Positions 12,753 through 60,623 of a stretch of 64,000 bases of DNA are shown here, piece by piece. How positions within the stretch are numbered: the first letter of the stretch is position 1; each line of letters starts with the position of its first letter. This DNA is from an uncultured Clostridia bacterium. GTDB taxonomy: Bacteria; Bacillota; Clostridia; Oscillospirales; JAAYOS01. The translations under genes were made by a program, and so were the position numbers. The notes under the pieces are model-generated. The model did no database searches and was not told where the DNA came from. It saw only the letters and a list, made by a program, of their open reading frames with translations. The stretch spans positions 3,892 through 67,891 of the forward strand of contig CALXFK010000043.1 of NCBI GenBank assembly GCA_944387575.1. The letters are read 5' to 3'.

Positions 12753-12826
12753 TGGAGGCGCCACCCGGAATCGAACCGGGGATCAAGGCTTTGCAGGCCC
12801 GCGCCTTACCGCTTGGCTATGGCGCC
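12753..12826 (-). tRNA. tRNA-Cys (GCA)
   Basis: RC reads GGCGCCATAGCCAAGCGGTAAGGC...CTGCAAA...GGTTCGATTCCGGGTGGCGCCTCCA, with discriminator U and an encoded CCA. Confidence 0.9.
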
Positions 12827-12877
12827 ACATCACACTATATACTATTCAATCAAAGATGGGAATATGCTATCCGGTAA

Positions 12878-12907
12878 GTTTGGCATGCGCATCAGCGCAT
12901 GCCAAAC
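12878..12907 (-). other. perfect 13-bp stem-loop in the tRNA-Phe/tRNA-Cys spacer
   Basis: gtttggcatgcgc / atca / gcgcatgccaaac. No clear U-run follows on the transcribed strand. Confidence 0.5.
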
Positions 12908-12911
12908 CTGA

Positions 12912-12987
12912 TGGTGCCTCCGGGCGGAATCGAACCACCGACACGGGGATTTTCAGTCCCCTGCTCTACCTACTGAGCTACAGAGGC
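12912..12987 (-). tRNA. tRNA-Phe (GAA)
   Basis: RC reads GCCTCTGTAGCTCAGTAGGTAGAGC AGGGGACTGAAAATCCCC ...GGTTCGATTCCGCCCGGAGGCACCA. Confidence 0.9.
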
Positions 12988-12992
12988 AAATA

Positions 12993-13070
12993 TGGCGACC
13001 CGGATGGGGCTCGAACCCACGACCTCTAGCGTGACAGGCTAGCGTTCTAAACCGACTGAACTACCGGGCC
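12993..13070 (-). tRNA. tRNA-Asp (GTC)
   Basis: RC reads GGCCCGGTAGTTCAGTCGGTTTAGAAC GCTAGCCTGTCACGCTAGA ...GGTTCGAGCCCCATCCGGGTCGCCA. Confidence 0.9.
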
Positions 13071-13076
13071 ATAACC

Positions 13077-13152
13077 TGGTGGGAACAACAGGGCTCGAAC
13101 CTGTGACCCCATGCTTGTAAGGCATGTGCTCTCCCAGCTGAGCTATGCTCCC
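13077..13152 (-). tRNA. tRNA-Val (TAC)
   Basis: RC reads GGGAGCATAGCTCAGCTGGGAGAGC ACATGCCTTACAAGCATG ...GGTTCGAGCCCTGTTGTTCCCACCA. Confidence 0.9.
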
Positions 13153-28719: not shown

Positions 28720-29040
28720 ATCTTTAGTAGAAGAATGATAAAGGCTCTGACGGGGAGGAGTACGCTCTCGCGCCGCATTTTCAGAGACAGGACGGGTGGT
28801 GCAAGTCCTGAGCGGCGGTTGCGGAAGGTCGCCCCCGAGCCGGCGCGCTGAACTCCGGCTTCCTCGCGTAGGCGCGCACGGGTTCTCCCGTTACAGGGAT
28901 GTGGCATGCGTATTTGCGCGCGTCATGATGAGAGCGTGGGGAGGAAAGCCCCACGAATTGCAGGTGGTACCGCGGATAAGCCGTCCGTCCTGGAAAACCG
29001 TGCCGATGGCACGTGTTTCAGGGCGGATTTATTTTTTTGC
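28720..29040 (+). promoter_or_regulatory. T-box leader (tRNA-Val responsive) with terminator/antiterminator
   Basis: Conserved T-box AATTGCAGGTGGTACCGCGG (about 28955-28975), AGAGA/AGTA stem I elements, and a candidate specifier GUC in GGAAGGUCG (28828-28830). The terminator helix is followed by ATTTATTTTTTT (to 29038). Confidence 0.85.
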
Positions 29041-36002: not shown

Positions 36003-36347
36003 GGGGGCGTACCGGTTTCGACGGGGATGCAGAGGCTGGATAAGCGGGTCGTGGCGTCCTCCACGTAAAAAGGGCAACCTTATAAATTAAGCAACGATAC
36101 TGAACTTGCTTACGCAGCCTAATTAGGCTGCCGTCCGCCCCGAAGGACCACGAGCGGGATACGGGCGTCGTTTAGTGGTGAACGTGCGTGCGCAAAGCTT
36201 TGAGCGCACACATGAATTATGAAGCTACCTCTCTTTTAAGCCAGCCGTCAGGCGTCTGAGAGAGGGAATTTAAACCGACGGCTGCACCCGGAGAAAGTCC
36301 TGTCGAAGCGTTTTCGGACAGGGGTTCGACTCCCCTCGCCTCCACCA
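36003..36347 (+). ncRNA. ssrA: tmRNA (ssrA)
   Basis: 5' GGGGGCGTACCGGTTTCGACGGGG and 3' GGACAGGGGTTCGACTCCCCTCGCCTCCACCA form the tRNA-like domain. The internal tag frame AAC GAT ACT GAA CTT GCT TAC GCA GCC TAA (36093-36122) encodes NDTELAYAA*. Confidence 0.92.
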
Positions 36348-36349
36348 TA

Positions 36350-36388
36350 ACGGAGCAAGCGTTTGTCGCTTGCTCCGTTTTATTTTTG
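36350..36388 (+). terminator. ssrA terminator
   Basis: acggagcaagcg / tttgt / cgcttgctccgt followed by tttatttttg. Confidence 0.75.
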
Positions 36389-36405: not shown

Positions 36406-36432
36406 CCCCGATGCAGGCTGCCTGCATCGGGG
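36406..36432. terminator. 12-bp hairpin downstream of the second GGDEF*/EAL gene
   Basis: ccccgatgcagg / ctg / cctgcatcgggg. U-runs are weak on both strands. Confidence 0.45.
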
Positions 36433-36518: not shown

Positions 36519-38783
36519 TTACACACCCTGTTCGAAGTTCATGTATTTGCGGCTGAACTCCGCAGCGGCAATAGGCCTGTCATAGAAATAGCCCTGTACA
36601 AAATCGAAGTTCAGTCTCTTGACAAAATCTCTGTCCTCCTGCGTCTCAACGCCCTCTGCAACCGTTGCAATGCCGAACTTTTTGGCAAAAACCACGACCT
36701 GTTCCACTATTGCCTGCCGTTTGACGAGTTCTTCCTCTGAAACCTTGCGCAGAAAACCACGATCCAGTTTCAGCTCGTCGATGTCAAGCTGGTAGAACAT
36801 ATTCAGCGAGGAGTATCCACTGCCGAAGTCGTCCATAGAAATGCGGAACCCTTTTTCATGAAGCGCCTCTATCTGTTTGTTTATCTGCTCAAAATTTTCG
36901 GTGGCAACGCTCTCCAGTATCTCGAGCGTGATAAGAGATGGGGGCACATGATACTTTGCAAGTATCTGAGAGACATTCTCCGGGTAATTGAGGTCGGAGA
37001 ACAGCAGTTTGGACTGATTTATAGATATTGGAGCTGGAGTTATTCCAACATCCATCCACATCCTTATCTGCTTGCAGACCCTCTCCACCATATACATGTC
37101 GAGTTTCAGACAGAATCCGTTTTTCTCAAAGAGCGGTATGAACTCACCCGGCATACGGAAAGAACCGTCCGGATTCTGCCATCTCACAAGAGCTTCCGCG
37201 CCTACGAGCGCATCCGTCTTTAAATTGAACTTAGGCTGAAGGAACAGCTTGAACTCTTTGTTTTGCAGCGCCGCATACATATGACTCTCTATACTATTTT
37301 TACGGCGCACTTCGTCGTGAAGCACATGGTTGTAAAACGCGATACTCTTCTGGTGAGAGTTCTGGATACTCTGCATTGCAAGCAGTGCCCGTTCCCTGTC
37401 CCCGCAAATCGCTATACCGCAATAGGTAGACAGTTCATAGCTGTACTCCCCATAATCCAGGCTCACCCGGCTGATATGGTCTATTATCTTCTGCATACGC
37501 TTTTGAACCAGTTGCTCATCGTTGTCAAGCAGCAGTATATAAAACAGGTCCGCCGTATCTCGGCAAAAGAACTCCCCCGTCTTTAGCATTCCCTCGATCA
37601 TCTCTTTAAGGTAACACAGCACCTTGTCTCCGCGATCTTGCCCAAACAGGTCGTTTATACCCTTGAAATTGTGCACATTCATCGCGACAGTGCTGTAATT
37701 CTTATGCTGACTGGATATTTCATTGAAACGCTGATTGAATCGGATAGTGTTTTCCGCACCTGTCACCTGGTCCTGATACGCTATTCGAATGAGTGCTCTC
37801 ACCGCTTTGCGGAACTGCCTGTACCCCGCATAAAGCAGCCCGTTGACCACGAGCAGCACAAGCAGCACCACCACTCCGGTTATCACCAGGACGCCGCCAA
37901 GCGCCAAATGTGCCCCCCACACAGTGTTGGCACAGAACAAATACCAACCGTTCATCCCAAGCGGCTCCAGATAATAGTGGCACCTCGTTCCCTCGTACCT
38001 GAATTCTCCGAGCACACTCTCCTGCTTGCTCAGCGCTAACCGGGTCTGCTCCTTAGTCTTTTCAGTCAGGTATGAACCGTCATATATTGTGTTCACGTCC
38101 TCCTTTATAAGGGTGTTCTGCGAGCGCACCAAGATCCTGCCCTCGCTGTTTATCAGGTTTATATAACCCGCCCCACCCATTACCGCTTTTCCGTTTGCAA
38201 TGTCGGTAAATATCTCAAGGGTATCGCTCGCCGCCAGTGCACCGACCACCTTGCCATTCTGATAGACCGGGACGGCATAAACGAACAGTTTTTCTCCATA
38301 AACGTCGCTACCAAACATTTTAGAGATGCCGTTATTTCCCTCGAAAGCCATTTCGATCACATCTATGGCGTAAGGATCGCAGTCCTCCAGCGTGATCTCG
38401 GACCTGTTTCCATATGTCGCCGTACTCATGACTCCGTGACCGTCTTTCCAGATATAGAGCATACTGATAAAATCGTTTGCCGAATTGGTAGCCGTGAGGC
38501 TCTGCTCCAACTGATCTTTGTCATTTGCGATGGAACTCACCTCGTATGCCTTTGCGAAGGTAGTCAGTATTTGTATGTTCTTGTCTATCTGTTTGAGTAT
38601 ACGTTCTTTATACTCCTGCGTCTCTATACGCATCTGTTCGTGCGCTGACTCATGAACCGCCTGCATCACATACTGCAAAAGGAACACGCCGACCAGGCAC
38701 AGCACCAAACAACTGACAACAGTTATAACAGTTATGCGTATCAGTTGTTTTCTTAATTTTTTCTCGTCCATCCCTAAATCCAC
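36519..38783 (-). CDS. sensor protein: TM - extracytoplasmic Cache-like domain - TM - degenerate GGDEF - EAL phosphodiesterase
   Basis: The GGDEF-fold region has ...FCRDTADLFYILL in place of RxGGDEF. EAL motifs are intact (EALVRW, INQS, LEILES, DDFGSGYSSL, KLDRGF, AEGVETQED, QGYFY). Confidence 0.85.
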   Translation of the reverse strand: MDLGMDEKKLRKQLIRITVITVVSCLVLCLVGVFLLQYVMQAVHESAHEQMRIETQEYKERILKQIDKNIQILTTFAKAYEVSSIANDKDQLEQSLTATNSANDFISMLYIWKDGHGVMSTATYGNRSEITLEDCDPYAIDVIEMAFEGNNGISKMFGSDVYGEKLFVYAVPVYQNGKVVGALAASDTLEIFTDIANGKAVMGGAGYINLINSEGRILVRSQNTLIKEDVNTIYDGSYLTEKTKEQTRLALSKQESVLGEFRYEGTRCHYYLEPLGMNGWYLFCANTVWGAHLALGGVLVITGVVVLLVLLVVNGLLYAGYRQFRKAVRALIRIAYQDQVTGAENTIRFNQRFNEISSQHKNYSTVAMNVHNFKGINDLFGQDRGDKVLCYLKEMIEGMLKTGEFFCRDTADLFYILLLDNDEQLVQKRMQKIIDHISRVSLDYGEYSYELSTYCGIAICGDRERALLAMQSIQNSHQKSIAFYNHVLHDEVRRKNSIESHMYAALQNKEFKLFLQPKFNLKTDALVGAEALVRWQNPDGSFRMPGEFIPLFEKNGFCLKLDMYMVERVCKQIRMWMDVGITPAPISINQSKLLFSDLNYPENVSQILAKYHVPPSLITLEILESVATENFEQINKQIEALHEKGFRISMDDFGSGYSSLNMFYQLDIDELKLDRGFLRKVSEEELVKRQAIVEQVVVFAKKFGIATVAEGVETQEDRDFVKRLNFDFVQGYFYDRPIAAAEFSRKYMNFEQGV

Positions 38784-38985: not shown

Positions 38986-40824
38986 TCAGGTATTGCCGCT
39001 GGCAGACGCTCCCGCAGCCTCGTGCTGTGACAGTATCTTACGCTTGACCTCCCAGCGCGGCATTGGATGGTAAAACCGAAAACCCTGTATTACATCACAG
39101 TTTATCTTCTGCAATGCCTCTACCTGGCTGTCCTCCTCAACACCCTCTGCAAGGATTGTCATGTTGAGCTCATGACCAACCTGTATCATCCCCTTAAGCA
39201 CCGACATGCCGCTCGGGGTCATCATATGGTCGATGAGACTTTTCCCCAGTTTAATGCCGTTGATGGAGTATTTCTGCAAATCGTAAAAGGAAGTAAACCC
39301 CTCTCCGAAGTCGTCAAGGACCACCTGGACACCGTATTCTTGCAGCAAAGTGACGTTCTTCTGTATCTGCAGAACGTTTTCCACGTCCACACTTTCGGTG
39401 ATCTCCATTATGAGCAACTCTCTCGGAAAGGTATATCTGTTGATTATATTCTTTACATTTTTTACAAATTCGGGAGCAACAAATGTCTCCCGCGAGAAAT
39501 TGCACGAGATAAAGAAGGTGTCCACATTCTCATGCAGCAGTTCTTCCAAGAACCCGCACACCTCCTCCAGACAGTAGTAGTCGAGGCGGCTTATAGACTT
39601 TTCCCTCTCCATCAACGGAACGAACTCGCCCGATAGCAGCACGCCCCTCTGCGGATGGTTCCACCGCGACAGTGCCTCTCCCCCGACAACATCAAACGTA
39701 TGGGCATCTACATAGAACTGGAGATACAACTGGAACTCATGCTTCGAAAACGCATCGTCTATACTCGCCTGCAACAATTTTTCCTGCTGGATCCGCTCCA
39801 TCATTTCATTAGAGCACAGCACGTAGTCCTTCGCAGTCCGCTGAGCTTCATATGCACCTTGCAAGGCGTAGAACAGCATCTCGTTAAGATCCCAGTCCTG
39901 CTTTTTCAGCGGGTACACGCCCACATATATATCCACTTCAAGCAATTTCCAGCACTGCTCCGCATATTGGCGCACCCGCTCAAGGACAGGTTTAAGCCAC
40001 TCCTCCGTTCCGAGCGTACCGCTGGTAAACCGGAGCATCGCAAACCCTCGTTCGGAAACCCGGGCGAGGATATCGGTATCAGCCGCGTTCTCACGCAGGA
40101 ACGATGCACATTTCGAAACGAATTCGTCGGTCTCCTTTCCCCCGATAATCCGCCTGAGGTGATCGGTGTCCACATAGAAATAGAGAAGCTGATACAGCAC
40201 CTTGTTCTTATCGTTTACATACTGCCTGTAATACCGCTGAAACTGTTCCCCGTTTCCAAGTCCGGTGACCTCGTCTGTGTGTGCCTCGAGCCACAAGTTC
40301 CGCAGCCGTTTCCTGAAAGCGCGGACGAGCAGCGCTATCGTGCAGCCGAGCAGTACGACGACAAGCGCGAGCGATGCAATGACAAGGTGCAGGCTGTGCT
40401 CGTTATTTGGCGCGTCTCCGGCAGAGAGCAGCGCCCCGGTTATTTTCCCGGCGGGCAGAGAGGACAGAAAACCGGTCAGTTCCGCTCTGAATGTATCCGG
40501 GGTGGCGTCGGTAAAGTACAGGTAATATACCTGCTCCTCCCCTCCCATCGACGCGGTGAACAGAACGACCGAGCCGTCGTTTTCCGGAATCCTGTCGCCC
40601 TGCGCGTACCCGGACAGGAGGTCCACCTGATTGTTTACCGCGTAATCGGCACGATGGTCATCGCCGTCGGTTCCGTAATAAACGATGTCGTACCCGCTCT
40701 GCTCGGAAAATTCGCGCAGCAGCTGTGGGATGACCCCCTCGAACGTCTGCGTATCCCGGTCAAAATACTCCAGCGGGTACCCGTCCGGGTTTCCGGCGAC
40801 ATATATCAGAGTTTTCTGATTCAC
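38986..40824 (-). CDS. periplasmic-binding-like domain - TM - degenerate GGDEF - EAL phosphodiesterase
   Basis: N-terminus IYVAGNPDGYPLEYFD... resembles a type-3 solute-binding domain. The GGDEF site reads ARVSERGFAMLRF. EAL motifs are present (EALSRW, CNFS, MEITES, DDFGEGFTSF, AEGVEED, QGFRF). The GTG start lies 3 nt after the upstream stop. Confidence 0.8.
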   Translation of the reverse strand: MNQKTLIYVAGNPDGYPLEYFDRDTQTFEGVIPQLLREFSEQSGYDIVYYGTDGDDHRADYAVNNQVDLLSGYAQGDRIPENDGSVVLFTASMGGEEQVYYLYFTDATPDTFRAELTGFLSSLPAGKITGALLSAGDAPNNEHSLHLVIASLALVVVLLGCTIALLVRAFRKRLRNLWLEAHTDEVTGLGNGEQFQRYYRQYVNDKNKVLYQLLYFYVDTDHLRRIIGGKETDEFVSKCASFLRENAADTDILARVSERGFAMLRFTSGTLGTEEWLKPVLERVRQYAEQCWKLLEVDIYVGVYPLKKQDWDLNEMLFYALQGAYEAQRTAKDYVLCSNEMMERIQQEKLLQASIDDAFSKHEFQLYLQFYVDAHTFDVVGGEALSRWNHPQRGVLLSGEFVPLMEREKSISRLDYYCLEEVCGFLEELLHENVDTFFISCNFSRETFVAPEFVKNVKNIINRYTFPRELLIMEITESVDVENVLQIQKNVTLLQEYGVQVVLDDFGEGFTSFYDLQKYSINGIKLGKSLIDHMMTPSGMSVLKGMIQVGHELNMTILAEGVEEDSQVEALQKINCDVIQGFRFYHPMPRWEVKRKILSQHEAAGASASGNT

Positions 40825-40827
40825 GGT

Positions 40828-41340
40828 CTATTCCTCAGCCTCGTCTTTCCGTTCAAAAAGACCCATATTGCGGCGCGGACCGGTTGCCTCCACCGTTTCC
40901 ACCTGACGCGCAAAATCCTGCACCTGCCTGTTCATCCCGGAAACCATCTCTTCAAACACGTCATGCAGCGCTTTTATCTTGCCGCTGTACTGCTCGAGTT
41001 CCATGTATTTCGCGGATAGCTCCGCCTCCCACTCCTCTCTCTCCTTCTTCGCCTTAGCCTGCGCCTCCTGACGCACTGCTTCGGCGGAGCGGGTCGCTTC
41101 CATCATTGTGGAAGCAATGGTCATCTGCGCCGCTTTGTGCTTTTCAAGCTGCTCCTGTGCGCTCTGCAACTTAGCCTCCAGGTCGGCTATCCGCGCGCGG
41201 TACTGCTCCTCCGCCCTTTGATTTTCCGACACTTTCTCCGCCATCTTAGTAGCAAACTCATTTTCGATATAGCTGATATATTCGTAAACGCTCGTCTTTT
41301 TATATCCGAATAGCCCCTTTTTTATCTGATCCAACTGCAT
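40828..41340 (-). CDS. DivIVA-domain coiled-coil protein
   Basis: N-terminus LDQIKKGLFGYKKTSVYEYISYIE resembles the DivIVA/GpsB lipid-binding head, followed by a long heptad-rich helix. ATG sits behind GGAGG. Confidence 0.6.
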   Translation of the reverse strand: MQLDQIKKGLFGYKKTSVYEYISYIENEFATKMAEKVSENQRAEEQYRARIADLEAKLQSAQEQLEKHKAAQMTIASTMMEATRSAEAVRQEAQAKAKKEREEWEAELSAKYMELEQYSGKIKALHDVFEEMVSGMNRQVQDFARQVETVEATGPRRNMGLFERKDEAEE

Positions 41341-41370
41341 ATACAAACCTCCATTTTGAACTGTTGACCG

Positions 41371-42774
41371 TTATTTGAACTGTATTTGTTTTCGCTCGAT
41401 GCGACCCCAGGAGTGTTTCTTTTTCTTGTATCCGAATAGTGCCGTGGTCCGTATCCACGCAAGTATCATTCTCAGACAGGATACCTCGACCAAACATAGC
41501 ACAATCGCTTTGACAAAGTCGGAAAATGTTAGCTTCATATCAATCGTATGTACCCGGGCAAAGAAAGCTGTGAGCGACAGTATCGCGGAATATACAACGT
41601 ATGTCACGTAAAACAGGATCATGAACGGCACGTTGATGAGGTCGACCCAGAACGCGAGCGCCACCGTCAGGATGCCAAACACCTCAATGTACGGCGACAG
41701 CAGCTCATATATCAGGAAATACAGGTAGGACACCATCCCGACAAGTCCGTACTTGTGGTTTATGAACATGCGCCTGTGCATCACCATGCTCTGGAACAGC
41801 CCTATGTGCCAACGTCTGCGCTGCTTGCAGAGGTCTTTCATCTTCTCCGGCACCTGTGTCCAGCAGACCGCATCGGTGGCGTATCGTATGCGGTACGGTA
41901 TCCCGTTTTCACGGCAGTAGGCATGCATCTTGACAACAAGTTCCATGTCCTCCCCCATCGTCGAGGCGTCGTACCCACCGGCGTCTATTACCACATTCTT
42001 CTTGAAGAGTCCAAATGCGCCCGAAATTATAATGCTTCCGTTGAACCGGTCGAACAGTATGCGCGCGGCAAGAAACGACCGATCATATTCCAGGACCTGC
42101 ATGCTCGGTATTATCTTTTTCGGCATGTGGTACGAGACCACCCTGCCGTTCTTTATCTCGGCTCCGTTGCATGGGCGGACTACACCTCCAACCGCCACCA
42201 CGCGACTATCCTCTAGCACTGGTCGCACTATCTTTTCAAGCGAGTCGTACTGCAACACCGAGTCCGCGTCCATACAGATGAAGTACGGGTATTTGGATGC
42301 GTTTATCCCCATGTTCAGCGCGTCCGCCTTTCCGCCGTTCTTCTTGCGGATGAGCGTTATCGGTACCTTCCACTCGTAGCTCTCGTAGACTGCCTCCTCC
42401 GGCTGGCAGGGCACCTTCCTCTGTATTGGACGGCTTATCGCCTTCATGTTGAACGCCTCACACACCACTTTTGAGGTATTGTCCTTCGAACCGTCGTCCA
42501 CTATCACTATCTCGTACAGCTTGTACTCAAGCGCAAGCAATGACCGGATGCTCGCCTCTATCGTCACTTCCTCGTTATATGCCGGAACCACTATCGTGAC
42601 CGGAACATAGTACTCGCCCAGGAGTTCGCTTTTCAGTCTGTTTCTTCTCTTCATCTGGTAGAGCATAGACGACCCCACCGTCACCGCAAGAAACAGAAAG
42701 CTCGCATACCCTATCATGTACAGTATGAAGAAAACGCCTACATACTCAAAGAACTGCTTATATGCGTCCATCAC
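41371..42774 (-). CDS. processive family-2 glycosyltransferase (IcaA/PgaC/cellulose-synthase-like)
   Basis: VPAYNEE, VDDGSKDNT, CMDADS (DxD), GAFGLFKK and QRRRWHIG (QxxRW), with N- and C-terminal TM helices. Confidence 0.85.
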   Translation of the reverse strand: MMDAYKQFFEYVGVFFILYMIGYASFLFLAVTVGSSMLYQMKRRNRLKSELLGEYYVPVTIVVPAYNEEVTIEASIRSLLALEYKLYEIVIVDDGSKDNTSKVVCEAFNMKAISRPIQRKVPCQPEEAVYESYEWKVPITLIRKKNGGKADALNMGINASKYPYFICMDADSVLQYDSLEKIVRPVLEDSRVVAVGGVVRPCNGAEIKNGRVVSYHMPKKIIPSMQVLEYDRSFLAARILFDRFNGSIIISGAFGLFKKNVVIDAGGYDASTMGEDMELVVKMHAYCRENGIPYRIRYATDAVCWTQVPEKMKDLCKQRRRWHIGLFQSMVMHRRMFINHKYGLVGMVSYLYFLIYELLSPYIEVFGILTVALAFWVDLINVPFMILFYVTYVVYSAILSLTAFFARVHTIDMKLTFSDFVKAIVLCLVEVSCLRMILAWIRTTALFGYKKKKHSWGRIERKQIQFK

Positions 42775-42780
42775 GGCGCA

Positions 42781-43887
42781 CTACACCTCCGCACTCTGCA
42801 GCTTGCGAGACTCAAGCCGATACATCATCATTTCCCGCGCATAGCGGTCATTGCCCGCCGTTATATCTAAAATATCGCTGTAATCCACATTGTGGTGCTC
42901 GAGGCTCTGAGATGCAGAGTACCTGACGTACCAGTTCCCACTGTGCAGCGCCTCCTTCAGTGCGTCCACGACCTCCTGACCCGGATACGACGCAAGCGAG
43001 GACGCTGCCACCGTCGCATACTCCCACCTGCTCATGTCGCCGTCTAACACAAACCCAATCAGGTCATCCCGCGCCGGTCCATAGTAGTACTTCCCAAGAT
43101 ACCTTATCGCCGATAATCGCAGCTCGATATTCTCCGCGCGGTCGGTCATTATCGCGTACATCTCCTCCTTATAGTCGCCCGAACAGAAACGGATATAGTT
43201 CAATATCGCGAGCTTCATATGGTTCGAAAAACCAGAAAACTCTGACCACAACTGCGATATCAACTGCCCGTGATCCCCAGAATACGAGAGCAGACCCTCG
43301 GTTATCAGCTTATTGTGCATAAACACGTTTCCGTCGTCCGCAATTTTTATGGCGCGAACGACGTACTCCGGATTTGCCATGTGATAGAGCACCTTCAGCG
43401 CATTGAACCGGCAGTATAGATTCTCCTTTCGCACGTATTCGAGCAGGATATCCTGGAGCGAATCGACCGGCATCTGCCTACCCGCAGTATAGTTTGAGAG
43501 AAAATATGTAAAGTACCCCGCCTTGTCGTTTGCCTTATCGCGGTACACGAGCGCAAGATAGAGTATCGCCGGGCGTATCTGCCGAAGATATGTCTCCGCC
43601 AGCTCCGACTTTCCGGCGTCCCCCTCGTTTATTACCATATGAAACGCCATAAGATCGTTCACATGGCACAGCTTACGGCGCAGTACCGCGGCATGGCGCG
43701 GATCTATTTCACCGCTTCTGCGTATCTCGCTCAGCTGGAGCATCACCATCCGCTCAAATTTCTCCCGCCGCCGCTTCATACGCGGGACACTCCATTTTAG
43801 CATCATATTGTAGACGAAATTGAACATTATCATGCTCACGCACACTGCGCCATAGACGTATATCATCACCTCTATGTTCATCCACAA
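42781..43887 (-). CDS. membrane-anchored HEAT/ARM-like repeat protein, function unknown
   Basis: One N-terminal TM, then all-helical repeats. The C-terminus ALKEALHSGNWYVRYSASQSL is a HEAT-type repeat. Confidence 0.5.
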   Translation of the reverse strand: MWMNIEVMIYVYGAVCVSMIMFNFVYNMMLKWSVPRMKRRREKFERMVMLQLSEIRRSGEIDPRHAAVLRRKLCHVNDLMAFHMVINEGDAGKSELAETYLRQIRPAILYLALVYRDKANDKAGYFTYFLSNYTAGRQMPVDSLQDILLEYVRKENLYCRFNALKVLYHMANPEYVVRAIKIADDGNVFMHNKLITEGLLSYSGDHGQLISQLWSEFSGFSNHMKLAILNYIRFCSGDYKEEMYAIMTDRAENIELRLSAIRYLGKYYYGPARDDLIGFVLDGDMSRWEYATVAASSLASYPGQEVVDALKEALHSGNWYVRYSASQSLEHHNVDYSDILDITAGNDRYAREMMMYRLESRKLQSAEV

Positions 43888-43918: not shown

Positions 43919-46180
43919 TCAGTGTTCCCGCCAGTACTCCTGCAGGATAAAATACGACTCTTTCAGCCGCTCATGATAGCTTACCTGCTTACCCCAGCCG
44001 TCAAGACCGAACCCGAACATCTCTATCCGCTCCCCGCTCCCCGCGCGGGCGTCCCCTTCGACCGCTACTCCGACAAACATCTCGTCTATATGTATATACT
44101 CAACGCCGTAGTTTTCATAGTAATCGTCGTGTATCATCATCTCGGACGGGTTCGCAAAGTTCAAAAGCTGCCAGGGCAACCTTATCTCGATGAAGTCACC
44201 CGAGAAAATGAAGTCGGCAAGCGAATTGAAGTCCTCCGAATCCGGGTTTGCATTTCCGTAGGTGAACAGCCCTGTCTCATAAGTCTCCGCCGACGCAAGC
44301 CAGTTTCCGGTTATGAGCGGGGTCGCTGTTTGCAGCATCATGCGTATCTCCTTGAACACCAGGGTATCCGCATCCACGGTATCGAGAAACGGATCCATAT
44401 CGTGCGTCTCGTGATAGAACATGGCGCGCAGCACCTCATACCGCTCCTGGACAAGAATGCGGCTGTTCTCCTTGCCGTCTATGACTATCAGGAAGTCGCT
44501 CGCCCGCTCAAACGAGATGCCGTAGTTCTCGCAGTATGTGCTCCCGGTCTTGGGGGTGGTGTCTATCGGGATGTAAATTACATCCTCGTCCGGCGAAAAG
44601 TTCTCCTTCTCCACAAGGAAATATATGAACTTCTCATCGTACTTCATCGAGACGGTCAAGCCTTCCTCCTCGACCACGACATCCTCCGGCTCCCACTCTG
44701 AAGTATCTCCGTCCACGTAACAGACGCTCTCCTCGTCGCCCGGGTCAAACGTGAGCAGCCCGAAATACTGCTCGTTTGTCTGGTAGTCGCTCCAGTAGGG
44801 AGTGTTGTCCAGGTCAACCGCGTGCATAGTGTTCCAGGTGCGCTTGAACCACTCGTCCTGCCACGTGAAAACGCAGCTTCCCGCACACCCGGCAGCCATG
44901 ATTTCCTCGTAACACTCGATTATCGCCCGCCCCTGCTCATCCTCGGTCATATGCCCCTGGTTCCGACCGGTGTTGTAGTCGCGCTGAGCCATTCCCCGAC
45001 CGGTGGACACCCCATACTCGGATATGACCACCGGGACGGTGTGGTAGTTTGTAAGCGCCTTCAGATAGGTGTAGTAGGTATTCACCCTGCCGCTCCCGTC
45101 CAGATAGTCCGCGTCCTCCCCGCCCGGCAGATACTGCGTTATCAGGTTCTCGGGCGGCACTATCTCGTAGACGTCGTACGCCTCGCCGACGTCCGCTATG
45201 TTGTCCGGCAGGTCGCGGTTCAAATACATATACGTGAGATAGTCCGGGTAATACGGATAGACGTGATACGACGCAAAGTGTCCGGACAGGAAGGCGTCGG
45301 TGGTCTTTATATGCTCGACGTCCACCTTTGCGCACTTCATGAAAAAGCGGGTTATATCGCTTTGATAATCGAACGGATCGGTGGTGGGCCAGTTTGAAAA
45401 CGCCACAAGCCTCTGCTCCTTGTACCGCTCAGTCTCGTACTCTATTATTTTGTCCCCCACCTCGCAAAGCATCGCCTCAAACGGCGACGCATCCTCGGTC
45501 GTATACATGTACTCGCCCTGATACGAGTTGCGCTCCGGGTACTTGTTATTCGTGTACGTGACGGTCACATCCTCCCATTCTACCCCGAGGATATAACCTA
45601 TCACCCAGTCGGACACGTCCTTTCTGTACCTCCCCGAACCGACCCCGTACCCGAGGTTCAGATTTTTCTTGCCGTGAAGAATGTCCACCACCGTCCGGCA
45701 GTCGTCGAGCAGGGTCTGTCGAAAGTCGTCGTCATAGGCGTCGCGGTGCGAGTTCTGTACATAGTCGTTCACCCAGACCCCGTGAATTAGCCAGAGCGGC
45801 TCCTCCCCCGTGGCTTCCCGCTCGGTATTGTACTCATAAAATGCGTTGTAAAAGTCGTCCTGGAGAATAGTATACACCCGGAGAGTGTTCGCACCGAGCT
45901 CCTGTATCCACCCAAACCACCGTAGATAGGTCGCCCGGTCGATAGCATAGTCGGTCGCCCACTCCCCCGGGATCCCAACCCCCATGTTGACTCCGCGTAT
46001 CTCAAACGGCTTATAGACACCGTCGCGCTCCATGTATATCGTGTCCGCATCGGTATTCATGAAGGTGGTCACCGGCGCGTCCGGGTCGAGGTCAACATAG
46101 ATGCCAAGACGGTAATACGCAACGTTCCATGCGACAAAGAGCAGCACCAATATGCACACCACTATGATAAACTTTTTCAT
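43919..46180 (-). CDS. N-terminally anchored extracytoplasmic protein with a TIM-barrel glycoside-hydrolase-like domain plus C-terminal beta-rich domain
   Basis: Signal-anchor MKKFIIVVCILVLLFVAW. GANTLRVY, FSNWPTTDP and VISEYGVSTG resemble clan GH-A strands 4 and 7. Family not identified. Confidence 0.5.
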   Translation of the reverse strand: MKKFIIVVCILVLLFVAWNVAYYRLGIYVDLDPDAPVTTFMNTDADTIYMERDGVYKPFEIRGVNMGVGIPGEWATDYAIDRATYLRWFGWIQELGANTLRVYTILQDDFYNAFYEYNTEREATGEEPLWLIHGVWVNDYVQNSHRDAYDDDFRQTLLDDCRTVVDILHGKKNLNLGYGVGSGRYRKDVSDWVIGYILGVEWEDVTVTYTNNKYPERNSYQGEYMYTTEDASPFEAMLCEVGDKIIEYETERYKEQRLVAFSNWPTTDPFDYQSDITRFFMKCAKVDVEHIKTTDAFLSGHFASYHVYPYYPDYLTYMYLNRDLPDNIADVGEAYDVYEIVPPENLITQYLPGGEDADYLDGSGRVNTYYTYLKALTNYHTVPVVISEYGVSTGRGMAQRDYNTGRNQGHMTEDEQGRAIIECYEEIMAAGCAGSCVFTWQDEWFKRTWNTMHAVDLDNTPYWSDYQTNEQYFGLLTFDPGDEESVCYVDGDTSEWEPEDVVVEEEGLTVSMKYDEKFIYFLVEKENFSPDEDVIYIPIDTTPKTGSTYCENYGISFERASDFLIVIDGKENSRILVQERYEVLRAMFYHETHDMDPFLDTVDADTLVFKEIRMMLQTATPLITGNWLASAETYETGLFTYGNANPDSEDFNSLADFIFSGDFIEIRLPWQLLNFANPSEMMIHDDYYENYGVEYIHIDEMFVGVAVEGDARAGSGERIEMFGFGLDGWGKQVSYHERLKESYFILQEYWREH

Positions 46181-46198: not shown

Positions 46199-47671
46199 TT
46201 AGTGGTTGAATTTCTTGTTCTTCGACTCGTGACTGTACTGAAGCAGTATCTCGATATGTTCATCCATCCAGTCGCCCCGGTCATGGATGAAATCCTTCAA
46301 CTGGTCGACCGCATCATCGAAGTCCTCCGGGTTGCGCTCGGACGGCGACAGCGCCAGAAACTCATCAAACGTATATCCCCAAACCTCAAAATTCCGCTCT
46401 ATTGCAGGTCCCAGATACTCGATCACCTCGTCTATATATCCGAGCAGGTACTCCTCGCTCAGATAGCTGCGCCTCAGCTCGCGGTACTCGCTTATGATGC
46501 GCTTGACAAAGTATTCGTCCTTCATCAGCATGTAGTACCACACCGCCTGCTGCATCTCAAAGTGATGTGGCTCGACGGTCGTCTTTTCATAGTTGTTGCA
46601 TGCCGAGTTGAAGTCCCATATCACCATGTTGTACTTTCCGCGGATGTCCTTGTACAGATACGTTGAAAGCCACCCGGCGTCGTAGTTCGTAGTAAACTCG
46701 TTTATTATGAAGTACTCGACAAACGACCCGACGTCGATATCGAGGTAATAGCCATAGTCGTCGGTGTCGTAATCGTAGGAGTAGAGGCTCTTCTCAAAGT
46801 CGGAGAAATCCTGCTCAATCGCGTCCGCCATCTCCGCGGTCAGCGAACCCGAACGCGGATACTGTATGTTAAGTTTCTGGAGGTTTCTAATGGCGTGGTT
46901 GGTAAAGGTCATTATGTTCTTTAGCTCCGTACCGCTGCCGCGGTCCAGACGTATAACATACCCCGTACTCACCGTGCCGTCTATCGGCTCGCTTACGTTG
47001 ACGCGGCAGTCGTCTCCGTTCGTTATCGTCTCGGTCATCACGTAAAGCCCCTGGTACTCGCCATTAAGAATGACCTCGCAGAACCGGACATTCGGCGCAT
47101 AATCCATTATCTCGCCCGCAATGTTGTACCACATGTAGTTGCGTATGAGCGACTTGTCAAGGTACGGACCGTGCAGCGCCCACTCGTAGTGCGGGTCCAT
47201 ACCCATCATCTCCTCGCTGCGGTACTCACCATTCTTGCCGGTCAGCCGGAGCAGATAGCTCTTTTTGTCGAAAAACCGAGAGGAATTCCCGCGTATACGG
47301 ATAACGATGTCACTCTCAAGGTCGGGCTCGTCGGACGGATGGTGGTTATGTGCATCGTCGCTCATCACCGACATCTTCGCGCTCACCATCTCCTCGCCGG
47401 TTTCGGTCGTGGTATATCCTATCGCATGGTTGTTCTCATCGACGATAGGCTCGCCCGGCATCTCCACTCCGCCGGTGTCTATAACTACGAGCGGAAGATG
47501 TGTGCACAGCTCGCTCCGGTCACAGCTGCACCCCTCGTCAGGCTGGCGTGCAACAAGGTGTTGGTGTATACGGTTGGTCGGGTTTTCGCTGTCAATCGCG
47601 GTGGCGGTAAATACCCCGGCAAGCATTATCACAGCCAGCACAACGCCCGCTATGCGATACTTCACACACAC
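46199..47671 (-). CDS. cotH: CotH kinase-family protein (secreted/anchored)
   Basis: RIRGNSSRFFDKKSY.LRL, YMWYNIAGEIM.YAPN..F.EV.LNGEY.GLY and WDFN are CotH signatures. N-terminal signal/anchor. Confidence 0.85.
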   Translation of the reverse strand: MCVKYRIAGVVLAVIMLAGVFTATAIDSENPTNRIHQHLVARQPDEGCSCDRSELCTHLPLVVIDTGGVEMPGEPIVDENNHAIGYTTTETGEEMVSAKMSVMSDDAHNHHPSDEPDLESDIVIRIRGNSSRFFDKKSYLLRLTGKNGEYRSEEMMGMDPHYEWALHGPYLDKSLIRNYMWYNIAGEIMDYAPNVRFCEVILNGEYQGLYVMTETITNGDDCRVNVSEPIDGTVSTGYVIRLDRGSGTELKNIMTFTNHAIRNLQKLNIQYPRSGSLTAEMADAIEQDFSDFEKSLYSYDYDTDDYGYYLDIDVGSFVEYFIINEFTTNYDAGWLSTYLYKDIRGKYNMVIWDFNSACNNYEKTTVEPHHFEMQQAVWYYMLMKDEYFVKRIISEYRELRRSYLSEEYLLGYIDEVIEYLGPAIERNFEVWGYTFDEFLALSPSERNPEDFDDAVDQLKDFIHDRGDWMDEHIEILLQYSHESKNKKFNH

Positions 47672-47695: not shown

Positions 47696-48385
47696 TCAAC
47701 TGCTTATCTCGTCGTTCTGCATCACAAGATTGCAGTACTCAATGTTCCCTATATCATAGATCGCGTCGGTTATACTCTTCGAACCGACATTCTTTTTTCT
47801 GCCACTTCTGTCGAGCACCCGTTTACTTATCTCGTAAATAAACTCTGCACTGTTCTCGGTCGTGTTCTTGACGCGGAGGTTTGCCTTGTGGGAAAAATAC
47901 TGGAACATCAGCGCCTCCACCCGCTCCTCGTTTACCCGCGAGGTGCGGAGGATGAGCAGCATCCTGTTGTCGTTCTTTATACGCCCGAAAATCAGCAGCA
48001 GCGCAAACGTAAACGCGCCGCCTATCCCCGCCGTAAGGTAGTCCCCGGCGCCGCAGCATATTCCGGTCACAATCGCCCAGAAGATATACACGGTGTCCCT
48101 CGAATCCTTAATCGCGGTGCGGAAACGGACTATCGAAAGCGCGCCCACCATACCAAGTGAAAGCGCGATATTGTTGCCGATAACTATCATTACGGCGGTA
48201 GTGACGACGGTGAGCGTCATCAGCGATACATTGAATTTCTTACTGTATATGCTCCCCTCGTGCGAGAGCATATAGGAAACGTATATAAAAAAGGAGATCC
48301 CGGTCGCCACGACCATGCGCATAACAATAGTGCTGAGACTGAGCTGCCCCGTACTCTCCAGCAGTTCCAGCAGTATCTCTCTCAT
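47696..48385 (-). CDS. DUF4956 membrane protein
   Basis: GALSIVRFRTAIKDSRDTVYIFWAI signature. The ATG at 48385 sits behind AGGAGGAGG; the ORF-track N-extension is rejected. Confidence 0.8.
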   Translation of the reverse strand: MREILLELLESTGQLSLSTIVMRMVVATGISFFIYVSYMLSHEGSIYSKKFNVSLMTLTVVTTAVMIVIGNNIALSLGMVGALSIVRFRTAIKDSRDTVYIFWAIVTGICCGAGDYLTAGIGGAFTFALLLIFGRIKNDNRMLLILRTSRVNEERVEALMFQYFSHKANLRVKNTTENSAEFIYEISKRVLDRSGRKKNVGSKSITDAIYDIGNIEYCNLVMQNDEISS

Positions 48386-48399
48386 ACAAAGCCTCCTCC

Positions 48400-49095
48400 T
48401 TATAGTGCAAACTTCATACTGGCGCTCCGCGCAAGGCAATACTTGCTTACCGACAATTCGGAGCGATCGGCTGCGTTCACCAGGTTCTTTATGTAACTGA
48501 GCAGGAAACCGTTGTATTTGACCTCCAACACTCCGTTGAACGGGTCGAGCACCGGGTACAGATTCAGGTGCTCTGAAAACAGGTCTGCACAGCACTCGGT
48601 CGCACGTATGTCGCCGTCAAAAGTGATCCTTATCCGGTTCTCCCTAGCAATATACGCACGCCTGCGGTACTCGACTATCGTCTTTGGACGGTAACAGTAC
48701 ATCTGCATCATCCCGTAACACTCCGCCGCAAAAGGGTCGTCATACTTCAGAAGGCTGCCATACCTGCCCTCCGCAAGCCCGGCTGCATCCGCCCTCGATA
48801 TGCGAAGCGAGCGCTTCTTCTGATACGCGCCCTCTTTCTGCTTCATCTCGAGCATCGCGAAATCGTCCGCCGGGTCGTATATCCGCACACGGATCTTCCG
48901 CCGCAGTTCGAGCCCGTCAATTTTCTCCTCATAGTCCCTGTCGTACAAACTGTCAAAATACAGTGAACGTATATTGTAGCCCAATATGCCGTTGTGCGGG
49001 TCGGGTATCATCACCCGGTCAAGTCGGCAGGACAGCTCCTTCATGCCGGAAATAGTCATGAAATATTTCTTCTCCTGTCGGTACACCTCGTTCAA
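48400..49095 (-). CDS. VTC-domain (triphosphate-tunnel, polyphosphate-polymerase-like) protein
   Basis: YRQEKKY (ExK strand 1), RRKIRVRIY, EMKQK, RITFD and LEVKY are alternating charged tunnel strands typical of Vtc4-like TTM domains. The TTG start at 49095 sits behind GGGGGGTGAT. Confidence 0.8.
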   Translation of the reverse strand: MNEVYRQEKKYFMTISGMKELSCRLDRVMIPDPHNGILGYNIRSLYFDSLYDRDYEEKIDGLELRRKIRVRIYDPADDFAMLEMKQKEGAYQKKRSLRISRADAAGLAEGRYGSLLKYDDPFAAECYGMMQMYCYRPKTIVEYRRRAYIARENRIRITFDGDIRATECCADLFSEHLNLYPVLDPFNGVLEVKYNGFLLSYIKNLVNAADRSELSVSKYCLARSASMKFAL

Positions 49096-49121
49096 ATCAT
49101 CACCCCCCGAATACTTCAAAG

Positions 49122-49177
49122 CAAAAAATAAAGCTGCAAAACACGTCACTTTTTAAATGACAGTGATTTTGCAGCTT
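49122..49177 (-). terminator. expression-platform terminator of the c-di-GMP riboswitch
   Basis: Minus-strand RNA reads AAGCUGCAAAA ... UUUUGCAGCUU followed by UAUUUUUU. The 5' arm overlaps the 3' end of the aptamer. Confidence 0.7.
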
Positions 49178-49254
49178 GACGGTCATAACAGTTTTCTGCC
49201 GTAGACTCAGAGCTTTGCGTCATCGTCTTTCAACGATTTTGCCCAAACTTCGAT
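49171..49254 (-). promoter_or_regulatory. c-di-GMP-I (GEMM-I) riboswitch aptamer
   Basis: Minus-strand RNA reads GUUUGGGCAAAAUCGUUGAAAGACGAUGACGCAAAGCUCUGAGUCUACGGCAGAAAACUGUUAUGACCGUCAAGCUGC. It contains GGCAAA, a GAAA-capped helix, the GACGCAAAGC core and a second helix with UA..UAUG receptor-like bulges, as in Vc2. Confidence 0.8.
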
Positions 49255-49294
49255 ATTTAATTTACCTCTAATCGACAACGCTGATTACTGTGTT

Positions 49295-49323
49295 ATCATA
49301 CACCATATGAATCCAAATTTCAA
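49295..49323 (-). promoter_or_regulatory. candidate sigma-A promoter driving the riboswitch/operon
   Basis: Minus strand reads TTGAAA - 17 nt - TATGAT, about 40 nt upstream of the aptamer. Confidence 0.5.
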
Positions 49324-49696
49324 TACGGTCATCAAATACTTTTCACGGCAAATCAATTTTTTACCCTCCGAGCACAACCTCTGTAAACCCGGGGCGAGGC
49401 GTGTATCACGGACTTTTCTTCACTACACGTGTAGCGTTCCCTTCCAGACTCAGACCTTCGTCGTTCTGCATCTTCTCATCTCACCATTACATATCACATA
49501 TTAGGCTATTACACCGCCGGTTAAAAAATAACAAAAATCGGCTTTGACCTTCTAAGCCAAGCAAAAAGCGGAAACGCAAGGACACATTTATATATATATC
49601 CAAAATACATACCTACGTTTTCTCTGATTATAATATTTTTGACCAATAATTTCAAGCCATTTTTCTACCTTATAAAATTTAATTAAAGCACAAAGG

Positions 49697-49725
49697 CTGA
49701 AAGTGTAGACTAATACGTTTATAAT
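49697..49725 (+). promoter_or_regulatory. candidate promoter of the divergent diguanylate cyclase gene
   Basis: CTGAAA - 17 nt - TATAAT in the AT-rich intergenic region. Confidence 0.4.
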
Positions 49726-49821
49726 ATGATATACTGGATAACGTTATTAAAATAGTTATCATAATCATTCTCAATTCTATTTTACCATGCTGAACATGGG
49801 GGCAAAGGAGGCGACGACAAT

Positions 49822-51534
49822 ATGATAGGCTCTGCGGTTTTAGGGTCTTTTCCCAAGCGAGCTGCCTTTGCTTTCGTTCTTGTGATGGTCATGTCTCTGA
49901 TGTTGGCTGCTGTATTTCGCTATGCCACTCCGCTTGACGGTATTCCGGACACGTACCCGAAGTCAATAGACGCCGGCTGGTTCTACGAGGACGACGGCAC
50001 GCTCTGCCCAATTGGCAAGCTGCCCTGCACGCTCGAGCACAACGGCGAAACGTTGTATATGGTCCGTGAGCTCTCTGATCTACCACACGATTCCGACGAT
50101 ATTCTCGCAGTTGAGACACGCTATCAGTCGATCCGGGTCTGGGCAGATGATGAAGTAATATATGAAGCGGCGCAGGGAAAGGAACACGCGCTTAGCACCA
50201 TGTGGCATTTCATCGCGTCCGAGCGGTACGATGGCGCCACGGAGATCCGCATCGAGCTCACTAAATACGACGGCGATCTGGAGTGGTCACTCAACCGCAT
50301 CTTCCAGGACCATCCGGATGCGATAAAGGTGTATCTTCTCGAGGAACACATACCGATCCTGATAGTATGGCTGTGCTGCATGTTGTTTGCGCTTCTGCTG
50401 ATGTTCGGTATTCTTTTCATGGCAGTAAAGAAGGTCGCAGGGATCACGACAGTTATCTCGCTTGCTTCATTTATATTTCTTTCGGGCAGTTGGATACTTT
50501 TCGACTCCAAAATCACCACGATATTTGGGGGGAATTACGCATTTACATACTTTCTCAGCTATGCCGTCTTTTATCTGATGCCTGTTCCACTCCTCTTCTT
50601 TTTCCAGCTCATACTCAATTTGCAGAGCAGGTTGCCGCGAATTCTCACATGGGTCACGGCAATAAACGCTGCGTTCTGGATGCTTATGCACCTGCTCGGC
50701 ATAGTCGATATACGCGATACCGCTGTGTGCGTCCACCTCATCATCATAGCGTTTGTCGTTCTGTTTATAGTCGAATTTTTTAAGAAGAGGACAAAACGGC
50801 TGATTTTCACGTTTTGTGGTATATTTTTGCTGTTTGTCCTGGCGCTTGCATCGATAGTACTGTATTATGCCGGGCTCCTTCCACCGTCCAACAGCGCTAT
50901 ACTGTTTGTCTGGAGTCTGCCAGCACTCATACTCTGCATGGTTATGGACACCGTGCTAATGGTCTATAACATATGGAAGGAACAGCAGTTCAATTCGGTC
51001 TACCGCCAGCTTGCCATCGAGGACAGTATGACCCGTCTTGCCAACCGCAACGCCTACGAGCTTCGGCTGCGCGAACTTGTAAGCGGCGATCCCTGTGAAC
51101 TCAGCTTTGTTCTTTTCGACATCGACCGAATGAAATATATAAACGACACATACGGTCACCACATCGGAGACCAGGTCATCGAGCTTGTAGCGCAGTGTAT
51201 ATTTGACACATTCGGGAACTGCGGCGACTGTTATCGCATAGGCGGCGACGAATTCTGCGTTATAGCGACCAACTGCAACGACATCCCGGGCAGGCTCAAA
51301 CGGTTCGACGAGCTAGTAGCATCGCGCAACGACGCTGAACTTCCTCTGGACGTCTCATACGGATGGGACAAACAGATTTTCAGAAACGGAAAATCGATTT
51401 CACTAAAAGCTATTATCGATCTGAAAACCTCCGCCGATAAGCAGCTCTATCTCCACAAGAACTCAAAAAACTGCGACACCCCTCATCCTGGGCAGTCCGC
51501 GGAAGAGTCAAGCGGCACCGTGCCTCTTCGATGA
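49822..51534 (+). CDS. diguanylate cyclase with extracytoplasmic N-domain and 7TM-type membrane module
   Basis: Signal-anchor, an N-domain of about 130 aa, about 7 TM helices, then MTRLANRNAY...FDIDRMKYINDTYGHHIGD...YRIGGDEFCVI with an intact GGDEF. Confidence 0.85.
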   Translation: MIGSAVLGSFPKRAAFAFVLVMVMSLMLAAVFRYATPLDGIPDTYPKSIDAGWFYEDDGTLCPIGKLPCTLEHNGETLYMVRELSDLPHDSDDILAVETRYQSIRVWADDEVIYEAAQGKEHALSTMWHFIASERYDGATEIRIELTKYDGDLEWSLNRIFQDHPDAIKVYLLEEHIPILIVWLCCMLFALLLMFGILFMAVKKVAGITTVISLASFIFLSGSWILFDSKITTIFGGNYAFTYFLSYAVFYLMPVPLLFFFQLILNLQSRLPRILTWVTAINAAFWMLMHLLGIVDIRDTAVCVHLIIIAFVVLFIVEFFKKRTKRLIFTFCGIFLLFVLALASIVLYYAGLLPPSNSAILFVWSLPALILCMVMDTVLMVYNIWKEQQFNSVYRQLAIEDSMTRLANRNAYELRLRELVSGDPCELSFVLFDIDRMKYINDTYGHHIGDQVIELVAQCIFDTFGNCGDCYRIGGDEFCVIATNCNDIPGRLKRFDELVASRNDAELPLDVSYGWDKQIFRNGKSISLKAIIDLKTSADKQLYLHKNSKNCDTPHPGQSAEESSGTVPLR

Positions 51535-60547: not shown

Positions 60548-60623
60548 TGGTCGGAGTGCGGGGACTCGAACCCCGGGCCTCCTGCTCCCAAAGCAGGCGC
60601 GCTACCAACTGCGCAACACCCCG
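60548..60623 (-). tRNA. tRNA-Pro (TGG)
   Basis: RC reads CGGGGTGTTGCGCAGTTGGTAGCGCG CCTGCTTTGGGAGCAGG ...GGTTCGAGTCCCCGCACTCCGACCA. Confidence 0.9.

Follow-up and report, generated by a model that had tools for sequence, protein, structure and literature searches.

A class-I cyclic-di-GMP riboswitch with an overlapping terminator, a probable ON switch of a putative surface-polysaccharide operon in an uncultured Clostridia bacterium

What signal decides whether an operon coding for a VTC-domain protein, a DUF4956 membrane protein, a CotH-family kinase-like protein and a family-2 glycosyltransferase (GT2) is transcribed? The question is raised by the leader of such an operon, located around positions 49,122 to 49,254 on the minus strand of a 64,000-nucleotide (nt) stretch of DNA from an uncultured Clostridia bacterium (assembly GCA_944387575.1, contig CALXFK010000043.1, positions 3,892 to 67,891), which is analysed here in full and referred to as the window. 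A first-pass annotation of the leader, made from the letters of the sequence, had read it as a class-I riboswitch for cyclic dimeric GMP (c-di-GMP) that is followed by its own terminator and works as an ON switch. The family membership of the leader, the mutually exclusive folds open to it, the conservation and covariation of both folds, and the content and packing of the genes behind it were computed. On this evidence, we hold it to be highly probable that the element is a class-I c-di-GMP riboswitch acting on transcription, as the ON switch of an eight-gene surface-polysaccharide operon with phosphodiesterase feedback.

To place the leader in an RNA family, the whole 64-kb window was scanned with cmscan against Rfam 15. 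Family RF01051 (c-di-GMP-I) was matched at 49253..49167 on the minus strand with a score of 74.1 bits (gathering score 35; E = 1.1e-12). This score, twice the gathering threshold, extends over the full model (positions 1-87 of 87), with no non-canonical pairs flagged, in agreement with the class proposed in the first-pass annotation; the leader RNA quoted there is present on the minus strand exactly as it was written (49260-49120). Two overlapping families of clan CL00126 scored lower at the aptamer and were superseded by RF01051, and the c-di-GMP-II family, used as a negative control, had no match within 49000-49400 in a permissive scan admitting E-values of up to 10. Folded alone, the aptamer adopted a minimum free energy (MFE) structure of -18.6 kcal/mol that is in essence the Rfam consensus structure (-18.3 kcal/mol). 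By family membership, therefore, the leader of the VTC operon is a canonical class-I (GEMM-I) riboswitch, and the aptamer occupies 49167..49253 (minus strand), as delimited by the RF01051 match, the agreement between MFE and consensus folds, and the covariation described below.

The anatomy of the aptamer is that of Vc2 from Vibrio cholerae, the prototype of RF01051, with which it shares the two-hairpin arrangement, the GNRA tetraloop and its receptor, the GGCAAA and GACGCAAAGC blocks, and the G/A/C bases at the ligand site. The first hairpin (49237-49222, minus strand) has the form AUCGUU-GAAA-GACGAU, with the GAAA loop, a GNRA tetraloop, at 49231-49228, and the internal loop of the second helix, CUACG/UAUGA, is of the 11-nt tetraloop-receptor type; the tetraloop and the receptor-like bulges described earlier were thus both found, together with all the ligand-contact bases. 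Model positions 11, 38 and 83 correspond to G49243, A49216 and C49171, which is the canonical G/A/C signature for c-di-GMP. We take these three nucleotides to be the equivalents of G20, A47 and C92 of Vc2. In Vc2, A47 intercalates with the ligand. G20 makes a Hoogsteen contact to G-alpha of the ligand and C92 forms a Watson-Crick pair with G-beta, and Vc2 binds c-di-GMP with a picomolar dissociation constant (Kd) (PMC6140456). The predicted ligand is c-di-GMP, which the aptamer would bind selectively and with high affinity.

An intrinsic terminator lies directly after the aptamer, as had been proposed: a hairpin of 21 pairs (49131..49177, minus strand; -23.9 kcal/mol), which is also present in the MFE structure of the full leader, followed by a U-run. 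Its 5' arm, AAGCUGCAAAA (49177-49167), is shared with the aptamer, its 3' arm in the predicted fold is UUUUGCAGCUU (49141-49131), and the U-run, UUUAUUUUUUG, spans 49122..49132, all on the minus strand; the nucleotides directly 3' of the hairpin read UAUUUUUUG. The interior of the terminator consists of a sub-hairpin, CAC/GUG, plus GUCAUUU/AAGUGAC. The reverse complement of the terminator (49125-49180, plus strand) resembled RF04352, the 3' untranslated region (UTR) of plastid psbA; at 28.8 bits, where the gathering score is 56.8, the match is below threshold and is a generic long-hairpin artefact.

In AAGCUGCAAAA, the 5 nt that end the second aptamer helix on its 3' side are followed by the junction G, the ligand-pairing C and four A residues. 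Aptamer and terminator consequently overlap by 7 nt, from A77 to C83 (49177-49171), the ligand-pairing C included, and therefore cannot coexist; the reuse in the terminator of the strand that closes the aptamer's second helix had been noticed at first reading and amounts to these seven shared nucleotides. The MFE structure of the full leader (-46.0 kcal/mol) includes the entire terminator and opens the aptamer helix at its base. Imposing the aptamer fold on the full leader cost 7 kcal/mol, and 13 kcal/mol when the ligand-contact bases had to stay unpaired as well; the latter value is similar in size to the binding energy expected from the picomolar Kd of Vc2 (PMC6140456). The fold resembling the ligand-bound state leaves only a shortened, A-U-closed hairpin, with GCAGC between it and the U-run, which in the modelled structure is not the geometry of a terminator. 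When folding was followed stepwise as the transcript grows, the outcome was mixed: the aptamer was the MFE structure at ends 49150 and 49136, and other pairings were favoured elsewhere. Not until the 3' arm had reached ~49133 did the full terminator take the place of the second aptamer helix. Since aptamer and terminator exclude each other, the design is that of a transcriptional ON switch.

Whether this design is kept in other species was examined in 80 loci (L001-L080) collected by a profile search with VTC homologues among contigs representing one genome per species. Nearly all come from Clostridia (for example Anaerotignum, Flavonifractor, Pseudoflavonifractor, Massiliimalia and Acutalibacter), with one from Paenibacillus; the best relative among the species representatives scanned, from the metagenome-assembled genome of an uncultured Clostridia bacterium, is 79% identical. 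A covariance model built from the homologous aptamers and run on 20-kb loci returned exactly one match per locus. At 49 of the 80 loci the aptamer immediately precedes the VTC gene in the same orientation, and at two more it lies on the opposite strand. Cultured carriers of both riboswitch and operon are Anaerotignum lactatifermentans DSM 14214 (L004), Pseudoflavonifractor sp. AF19-9AC (L009) and Clostridia bacterium UC5.1-1D10 (L006). Among 52 aptamer sequences, in an alignment fitted to the model and therefore favouring the structure somewhat, 95.7% of the cells at paired positions were paired, and 16 of the 22 pairs showed compensatory changes; the observed value exceeded those of all 500 shuffles, and pairing in slid controls was 17-49%. 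C83 and A38 were invariant, and G11 was conserved in >90% of 46 homologues.

A terminator hairpin of -16 to -45 kcal/mol followed by a U-run was found in each of the 50 coding-strand leaders (the window counted). Counted along the aptamer, its predicted 5' arm begins exactly where it does in the window in 44 of them, one nt later in four and 3 or 4 nt further upstream in the remaining two. The interiors of these terminators are unrelated in sequence from one leader to another, while their base pairing is kept. At the foot of the hairpin, compensatory changes were seen at five of nine base pairs, a count that is biased towards pairing by the location of the 3' arms from predicted folds. Four sequences carry U81C, which breaks the terminal pair of the aptamer, and in these an A-to-G change in the terminator arm restores the terminator pair; this argues that terminator pairing is itself under selection. 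The ON logic that had been put forward follows from the mutual exclusivity of the two folds, which, as judged from predicted structures, is conserved in the homologous leaders.

How would such a leader work in the cell? A candidate sigma-A-type promoter, TTGAAA-N17-TATGAT, lies at 49295..49323 on the minus strand and matches the consensus at 10 of 12 positions (-35 box at 49323-49318, -10 box at 49300-49295, the latter ending 41 nt before the aptamer). Transcription probably begins near 49288, some 35 nt upstream of the aptamer, which (49253-49167) would fold first. If c-di-GMP is scarce, UUUUGCAGCUU would pair by strand invasion with the 3' strand of aptamer helix 2. The hairpin completed in this way, of 21 bp and abutting the U-run, would make RNA polymerase terminate ahead of the VTC start codon. 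With c-di-GMP bound, the ligand would pair with C49171 and lock the junction and the AAGCU strand, so that only the truncated, A-U-closed hairpin could form, at least 5 nt from the U-run, and read-through into the eight genes would ensue. The coding region most likely starts at the TTG codon at 49095, preceded by the Shine-Dalgarno sequence GGGGGGUG at 49108-49101, because the homologues are 231 amino acids (aa) long with the invariant N-terminal residues N2, E3 and V4.

Several points weigh against this reading and have to be set beside it. The spacer is AT-rich, with 8 promoter-like sites against 2.7 expected, and a promoter match of at least 9/12 within 200 nt occurs in 23 of 49 homologous leaders, at distances ranging from -3 to 170 nt; the position of the promoter is therefore not conserved in relatives, and comparison lends it no support. 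The TTGAAA-N17-TATGAT motif is indeed where the first-pass annotation had placed it, as a consensus match whose position is not kept elsewhere. A simple terminator scan of 48800-49800 did not call the hairpin, on account of its bulges and its length of more than 20 pairs; the missed call is a limit of the scanner, the hairpin being real. To these are added the bias in the terminator covariation and the presumed correspondence of the three ligand-site bases with Vc2, both mentioned above, and the fact that 31 of the 80 orthologous operons have no riboswitch, hence it is not obligatory for the operon. Finally, the direction of regulation cannot be extrapolated from one c-di-GMP riboswitch to another, and all seven functional class-I switches of Clostridioides difficile are OFF switches (PMC6366702).

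This last point bears on the first of the alternatives to be weighed, namely that the aptamer is real and the switch is an OFF switch or acts on translation, the hairpin being a constitutive attenuator or having some other role. Cd1 and the other class-I elements of C. difficile belong to the same aptamer class, come from the same bacterial class and have an intrinsic terminator, and those that function are all OFF, whereas the element of the window is built as an ON switch; class-I elements of V. cholerae work without termination, Vc2 among them, in contrast with the Firmicutes-type intrinsic terminator found here (PMC6366702). An OFF design, however, needs an aptamer and a terminator that coexist, and a separate anti-terminator, while here 7 nt are shared; no alternative anti-terminator is conserved, and the overlap between aptamer and terminator is present in all 50 leaders. 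As to translational control, the Shine-Dalgarno sequence of the VTC gene lies at least 14 nt beyond the U-run and is part of neither fold. A class-I ON switch is not without precedent, since Bc2, located before the cap gene of Bacillus thuringiensis, was experimentally shown to act by read-through (PMC6366702), although Bc2 controls a single collagen-adhesin gene and the element of the window an eight-gene polysaccharide/CotH/phosphodiesterase operon of gut Clostridia. A second precedent is the pilM GEMM-Ib element of Geobacter metallireducens, an ON switch for 3',3'-cyclic GMP-AMP (cGAMP), in which aptamer and terminator are likewise mutually exclusive and the ligand-pairing C is sequestered in the terminator (PMC9262584); it differs in that it has an A at the G20-equivalent position, senses 3',3'-cGAMP, and belongs to a Gram-negative bacterium with a different regulon. 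We therefore regard an OFF or translational switch as very unlikely.

A decaying, non-functional remnant of a riboswitch appears about as improbable. Such remnants do exist, 5 of 16 predicted c-di-GMP riboswitches of C. difficile being non-functional (PMC6366702), and the 31 orthologous operons that lack the element manage without it. The copy in the window, however, matches the family over its full length, has no non-canonical pair and retains all its ligand-contact bases. Across 49 species, moreover, compensatory substitutions keep both the aptamer and the terminator, which indicates purifying selection.

Slightly less probable still is a cyclic dinucleotide other than c-di-GMP as the ligand, for instance 3',3'-cGAMP, which GEMM-Ib RNAs sense. 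GEMM-I and GEMM-Ib share one fold, cGAMP-sensing GEMM-Ib RNAs have an A at position 20, and the single substitution G20A makes Vc2 bispecific (PMC6140456). An A at the G20 equivalent was found in three orthologous leaders (L003, 1641-1729; L013, 4903-4992; L080, 3915-4000), whose aptamers may be altered-specificity variants in Clostridia. In the window the equivalent nucleotide, 49243, is a G, as it is in >90% of the homologues, and genes for GGDEF and EAL proteins surround the locus; wild-type Vc2, with G20, binds cGAMP only at ~10 µM, as against picomolar c-di-GMP (PMC6140456). Lastly, a chance resemblance in an AT-rich intergenic region is effectively refuted by an E-value of 1e-12 for the whole window, by the covariation, and by the single match per 20-kb locus, which always falls at the same place.

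If the element is a c-di-GMP-dependent ON switch, the genes that it would control are those packed behind it on the minus strand. The first-pass annotation had named a VTC/DUF4956/CotH/GT2 operon; Pfam confirmed these domains, and the extent of the unit had to be redrawn to eight genes, ending in one for a probable phosphodiesterase. Gene 1 (48400..49095) codes for a 231-aa VTC-domain protein of the polyphosphate-polymerase-like, triphosphate-tunnel type (PF09359, E = 3e-38), gene 2 (47696..48385) for a 229-aa DUF4956 membrane protein (PF16316; the gene call on the source contig agrees), and gene 3 (46199..47671) for a 490-aa kinase-like protein of the CotH family that begins with a membrane anchor or a signal sequence (PF08757, E = 7e-60). 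Gene 4 (43919..46180) specifies a 753-aa protein without a Pfam family and with an N-terminal transmembrane helix, and gene 5 (42781..43887) a 368-aa HEAT-repeat protein (PF13646) that also starts with a transmembrane helix. Gene 6 (41371..42774) encodes a membrane-embedded processive family-2 glycosyltransferase of 467 aa with a QRRRW motif (Pfam GT2 families, Chitin_synth_2), and gene 7 (40828..41346) a 172-aa coiled-coil protein with a weak DivIVA-like similarity (E = 5e-4, below the Pfam cut-off). Gene 8 (38986..40824), which starts 3 nt after gene 7, combines a degenerate GGDEF domain (SERGF; E = 1e-8) with an EAL domain (Pfam, E = 6e-51). Its translation shows the EAL motifs EALSR, N, EITES, DDFG, K, EGVE and QG intact, and the protein is probably a c-di-GMP phosphodiesterase. 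The gaps between the eight genes measure 3-31 nt, each gene has a Shine-Dalgarno sequence, and no convincing internal terminator was found within the unit, an arrangement consistent with co-transcription. Essentially every locus of sufficient length keeps the gene order, with or without riboswitch; gene 7 is present in most of the orthologous operons, though not in all.

Two of these products called for a closer look. The product of gene 4 is conserved; it had no sequence match in Pfam, NCBIfam or the PDB, and has >4000 homologues in a metagenome protein set, a few of which carry the glycoside hydrolase (GH) domain PF03198 (GH72). Its AlphaFold model is of medium confidence (predicted local distance difference test, 67.6), and the best PDB folds matched were those of GH157, GH2, GH5 and GH72 (E = 1e-8), with low TM values of 0.28/0.39; the model suggests a membrane-anchored GH-A-type (beta/alpha)8 barrel plus a beta-sandwich. 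For gene 6, the best NCBIfam match was PgaC_IcaA (TIGR03937), and the PDB sequence matches include BcsA and chitin synthase. Since the TIGR03937 score was 146.6 bits, below the equivalog cut-off of 422 bits, an assignment as a PgaC/IcaA poly-beta-1,6-GlcNAc synthase equivalog was rejected; by sequence, the protein is a related processive membrane GT2 synthase. Taken together, the gene content suggests a synthase-dependent system for exopolysaccharide to which a VTC/DUF4956/CotH cassette is joined. In two relatives an extra gene is inserted between the VTC and DUF4956 genes: in L014 (10747-12189) its 480-aa product is Fn3-like and includes a domain resembling CE4 polysaccharide deacetylases (TIDDG motif), and in L026 it lies between ~1100 and 2560. 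The deacetylase-like insert of L014 hints at a polymer containing N-acetylated sugars.

Two described systems resemble this operon. NELoc-2 is a chromosomal locus of necrotic-enteritis strains of Clostridium perfringens (Lepp et al. 2010, PMC2879425) with genes for a VTC protein (230 aa), a membrane protein listed as 'tubulin/FtsZ' (222), CotH (497), a hypothetical protein (685), a HEAT-repeat protein (377) and a GT2 'chitin synthase' (466) (PMC2879425, Table 4). Compared by domain order and sizes only, the first six genes of the window have the same order and sizes; NELoc-2 differs in a duplicated VTC/membrane-protein pair around a resolvase and in that no EAL gene is listed (PMC2879425). The literature on NELoc-2 reports neither a riboswitch nor a link to c-di-GMP. 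The second system is the accessory cassette of Gram-positive pel operons, composed of CotH, a polyphosphate polymerase, DUF4956 and DUF4832, the last of which is replaced in bifidobacteria by a diguanylate cyclase/phosphodiesterase gene (Whitfield et al. 2020, PMC7112168). In both cases CotH, a VTC-type polyphosphate polymerase and DUF4956 are attached to a synthase-dependent exopolysaccharide operon, whereas the window has no pelD/E/A/F/G, its synthase is a PgaC/BcsA-like GT2 and not PelF (GT4), and its cassette stands at the front of the operon, behind the riboswitch. DUF4832 was absent from the window even at E-values of up to 10. A Gram-positive Pel system was therefore rejected. Literature searches for a connection between c-di-GMP riboswitches and CotH, VTC or polyphosphate polymerase yielded no paper that makes one; the mentions of CotH in PMC4448311 concern the 5' UTR of B. 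subtilis cotH and are unrelated.

If the eight genes are expressed together, the GT2 synthase, the GH-like protein and the HEAT scaffold could, with the VTC/DUF4956/CotH cassette, form an exopolysaccharide machine. High c-di-GMP would then induce both the surface-polymer system and the EAL enzyme that lowers c-di-GMP, closing a negative feedback loop. A more specific scheme, which we put forward tentatively and consider rather unlikely to be right in full, is that of a c-di-GMP-induced matrix system, widespread in gut Clostridia and homologous to NELoc-2, in which a cytoplasmic VTC polyphosphate polymerase, DUF4956 and a surface-exposed CotH kinase would give phosphate to the GT2-made exopolysaccharide or to matrix proteins, and in which the EAL protein would make induction self-limiting. 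Were this scheme true, the riboswitch would be the first regulatory handle on a NELoc-2-type locus, linking the locus to c-di-GMP.

Some of the orthologous operons without a GEMM-I element have another kind of leader, in which a strong promoter is followed by a ~120-nt leader and a terminator before the VTC gene (L045, 9829-9990; L052, same region; L056, ~4400-4590; L066, same region). Those of L045 and L056 had no Rfam match at E-values of up to 10, and these regions are candidate cis-regulatory leaders of the same operon. In L045 (9584-9470, minus strand) and L052 (9619-9533, minus strand) a GEMM-I aptamer faces the opposite way; it, too, overlaps with a terminator of this kind, and it precedes genes for a 267-aa protein and an 843-aa HD-GYP-like membrane protein (HDIGK...HHENFDGSGY); it may be another c-di-GMP ON switch, driving a c-di-GMP phosphodiesterase.

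Around the operon of the window, the divergent upstream gene (49822-51534, plus strand) codes for a multi-pass membrane protein of 570 aa whose GGDEF motif (RIGGDEF) is intact, a probable diguanylate cyclase. On the other side, 202 nt downstream of the operon and with no clear terminator found in that gap, a gene at 36519-38783 (minus strand) combines dCache, a degenerate GGDEF and an intact EAL domain, and its product is a probable second c-di-GMP phosphodiesterase. These surroundings fit a c-di-GMP module; neither gene is conserved with the operon in relatives, and the divergent GGDEF gene was rejected as part of the system since it is not next to the operon there. Other RNAs detected in the window were a transfer-messenger RNA gene at 36003-36347 (plus strand; RF00023, 169.5 bits) with two strong terminator-like hairpins behind it (36349-36379 and 36406-36432), a GC-rich (64%) T-box leader at 28738-28995 (plus strand; RF00230, 117.9 bits), and six tRNA genes, four clustered at 12756-13152 and the others at 60551-60623 and 458-531 (all minus strand).

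The riboswitch class is a textbook one, and automated Rfam annotation would find the copy in the window. The value of the finding lies in the prediction that high c-di-GMP turns on a conserved eight-gene operon. The operon occurs in 80 or more species from Clostridia and Paenibacillus, and necrotic enteritis is associated with NELoc-2, its counterpart in C. perfringens. The riboswitch would represent a class-I ON switch in Clostridia, as opposed to the characterised class-I switches of C. difficile, all of which are OFF, and it would place a phosphodiesterase gene inside the riboswitch's own regulon. The VTC/DUF4956/CotH cassette would also become tied to a second-messenger signal, which may help to work out the role of the cassette. 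For the widespread and uncharacterised operons of the NELoc-2 type, this riboswitch would provide the first regulatory clue.

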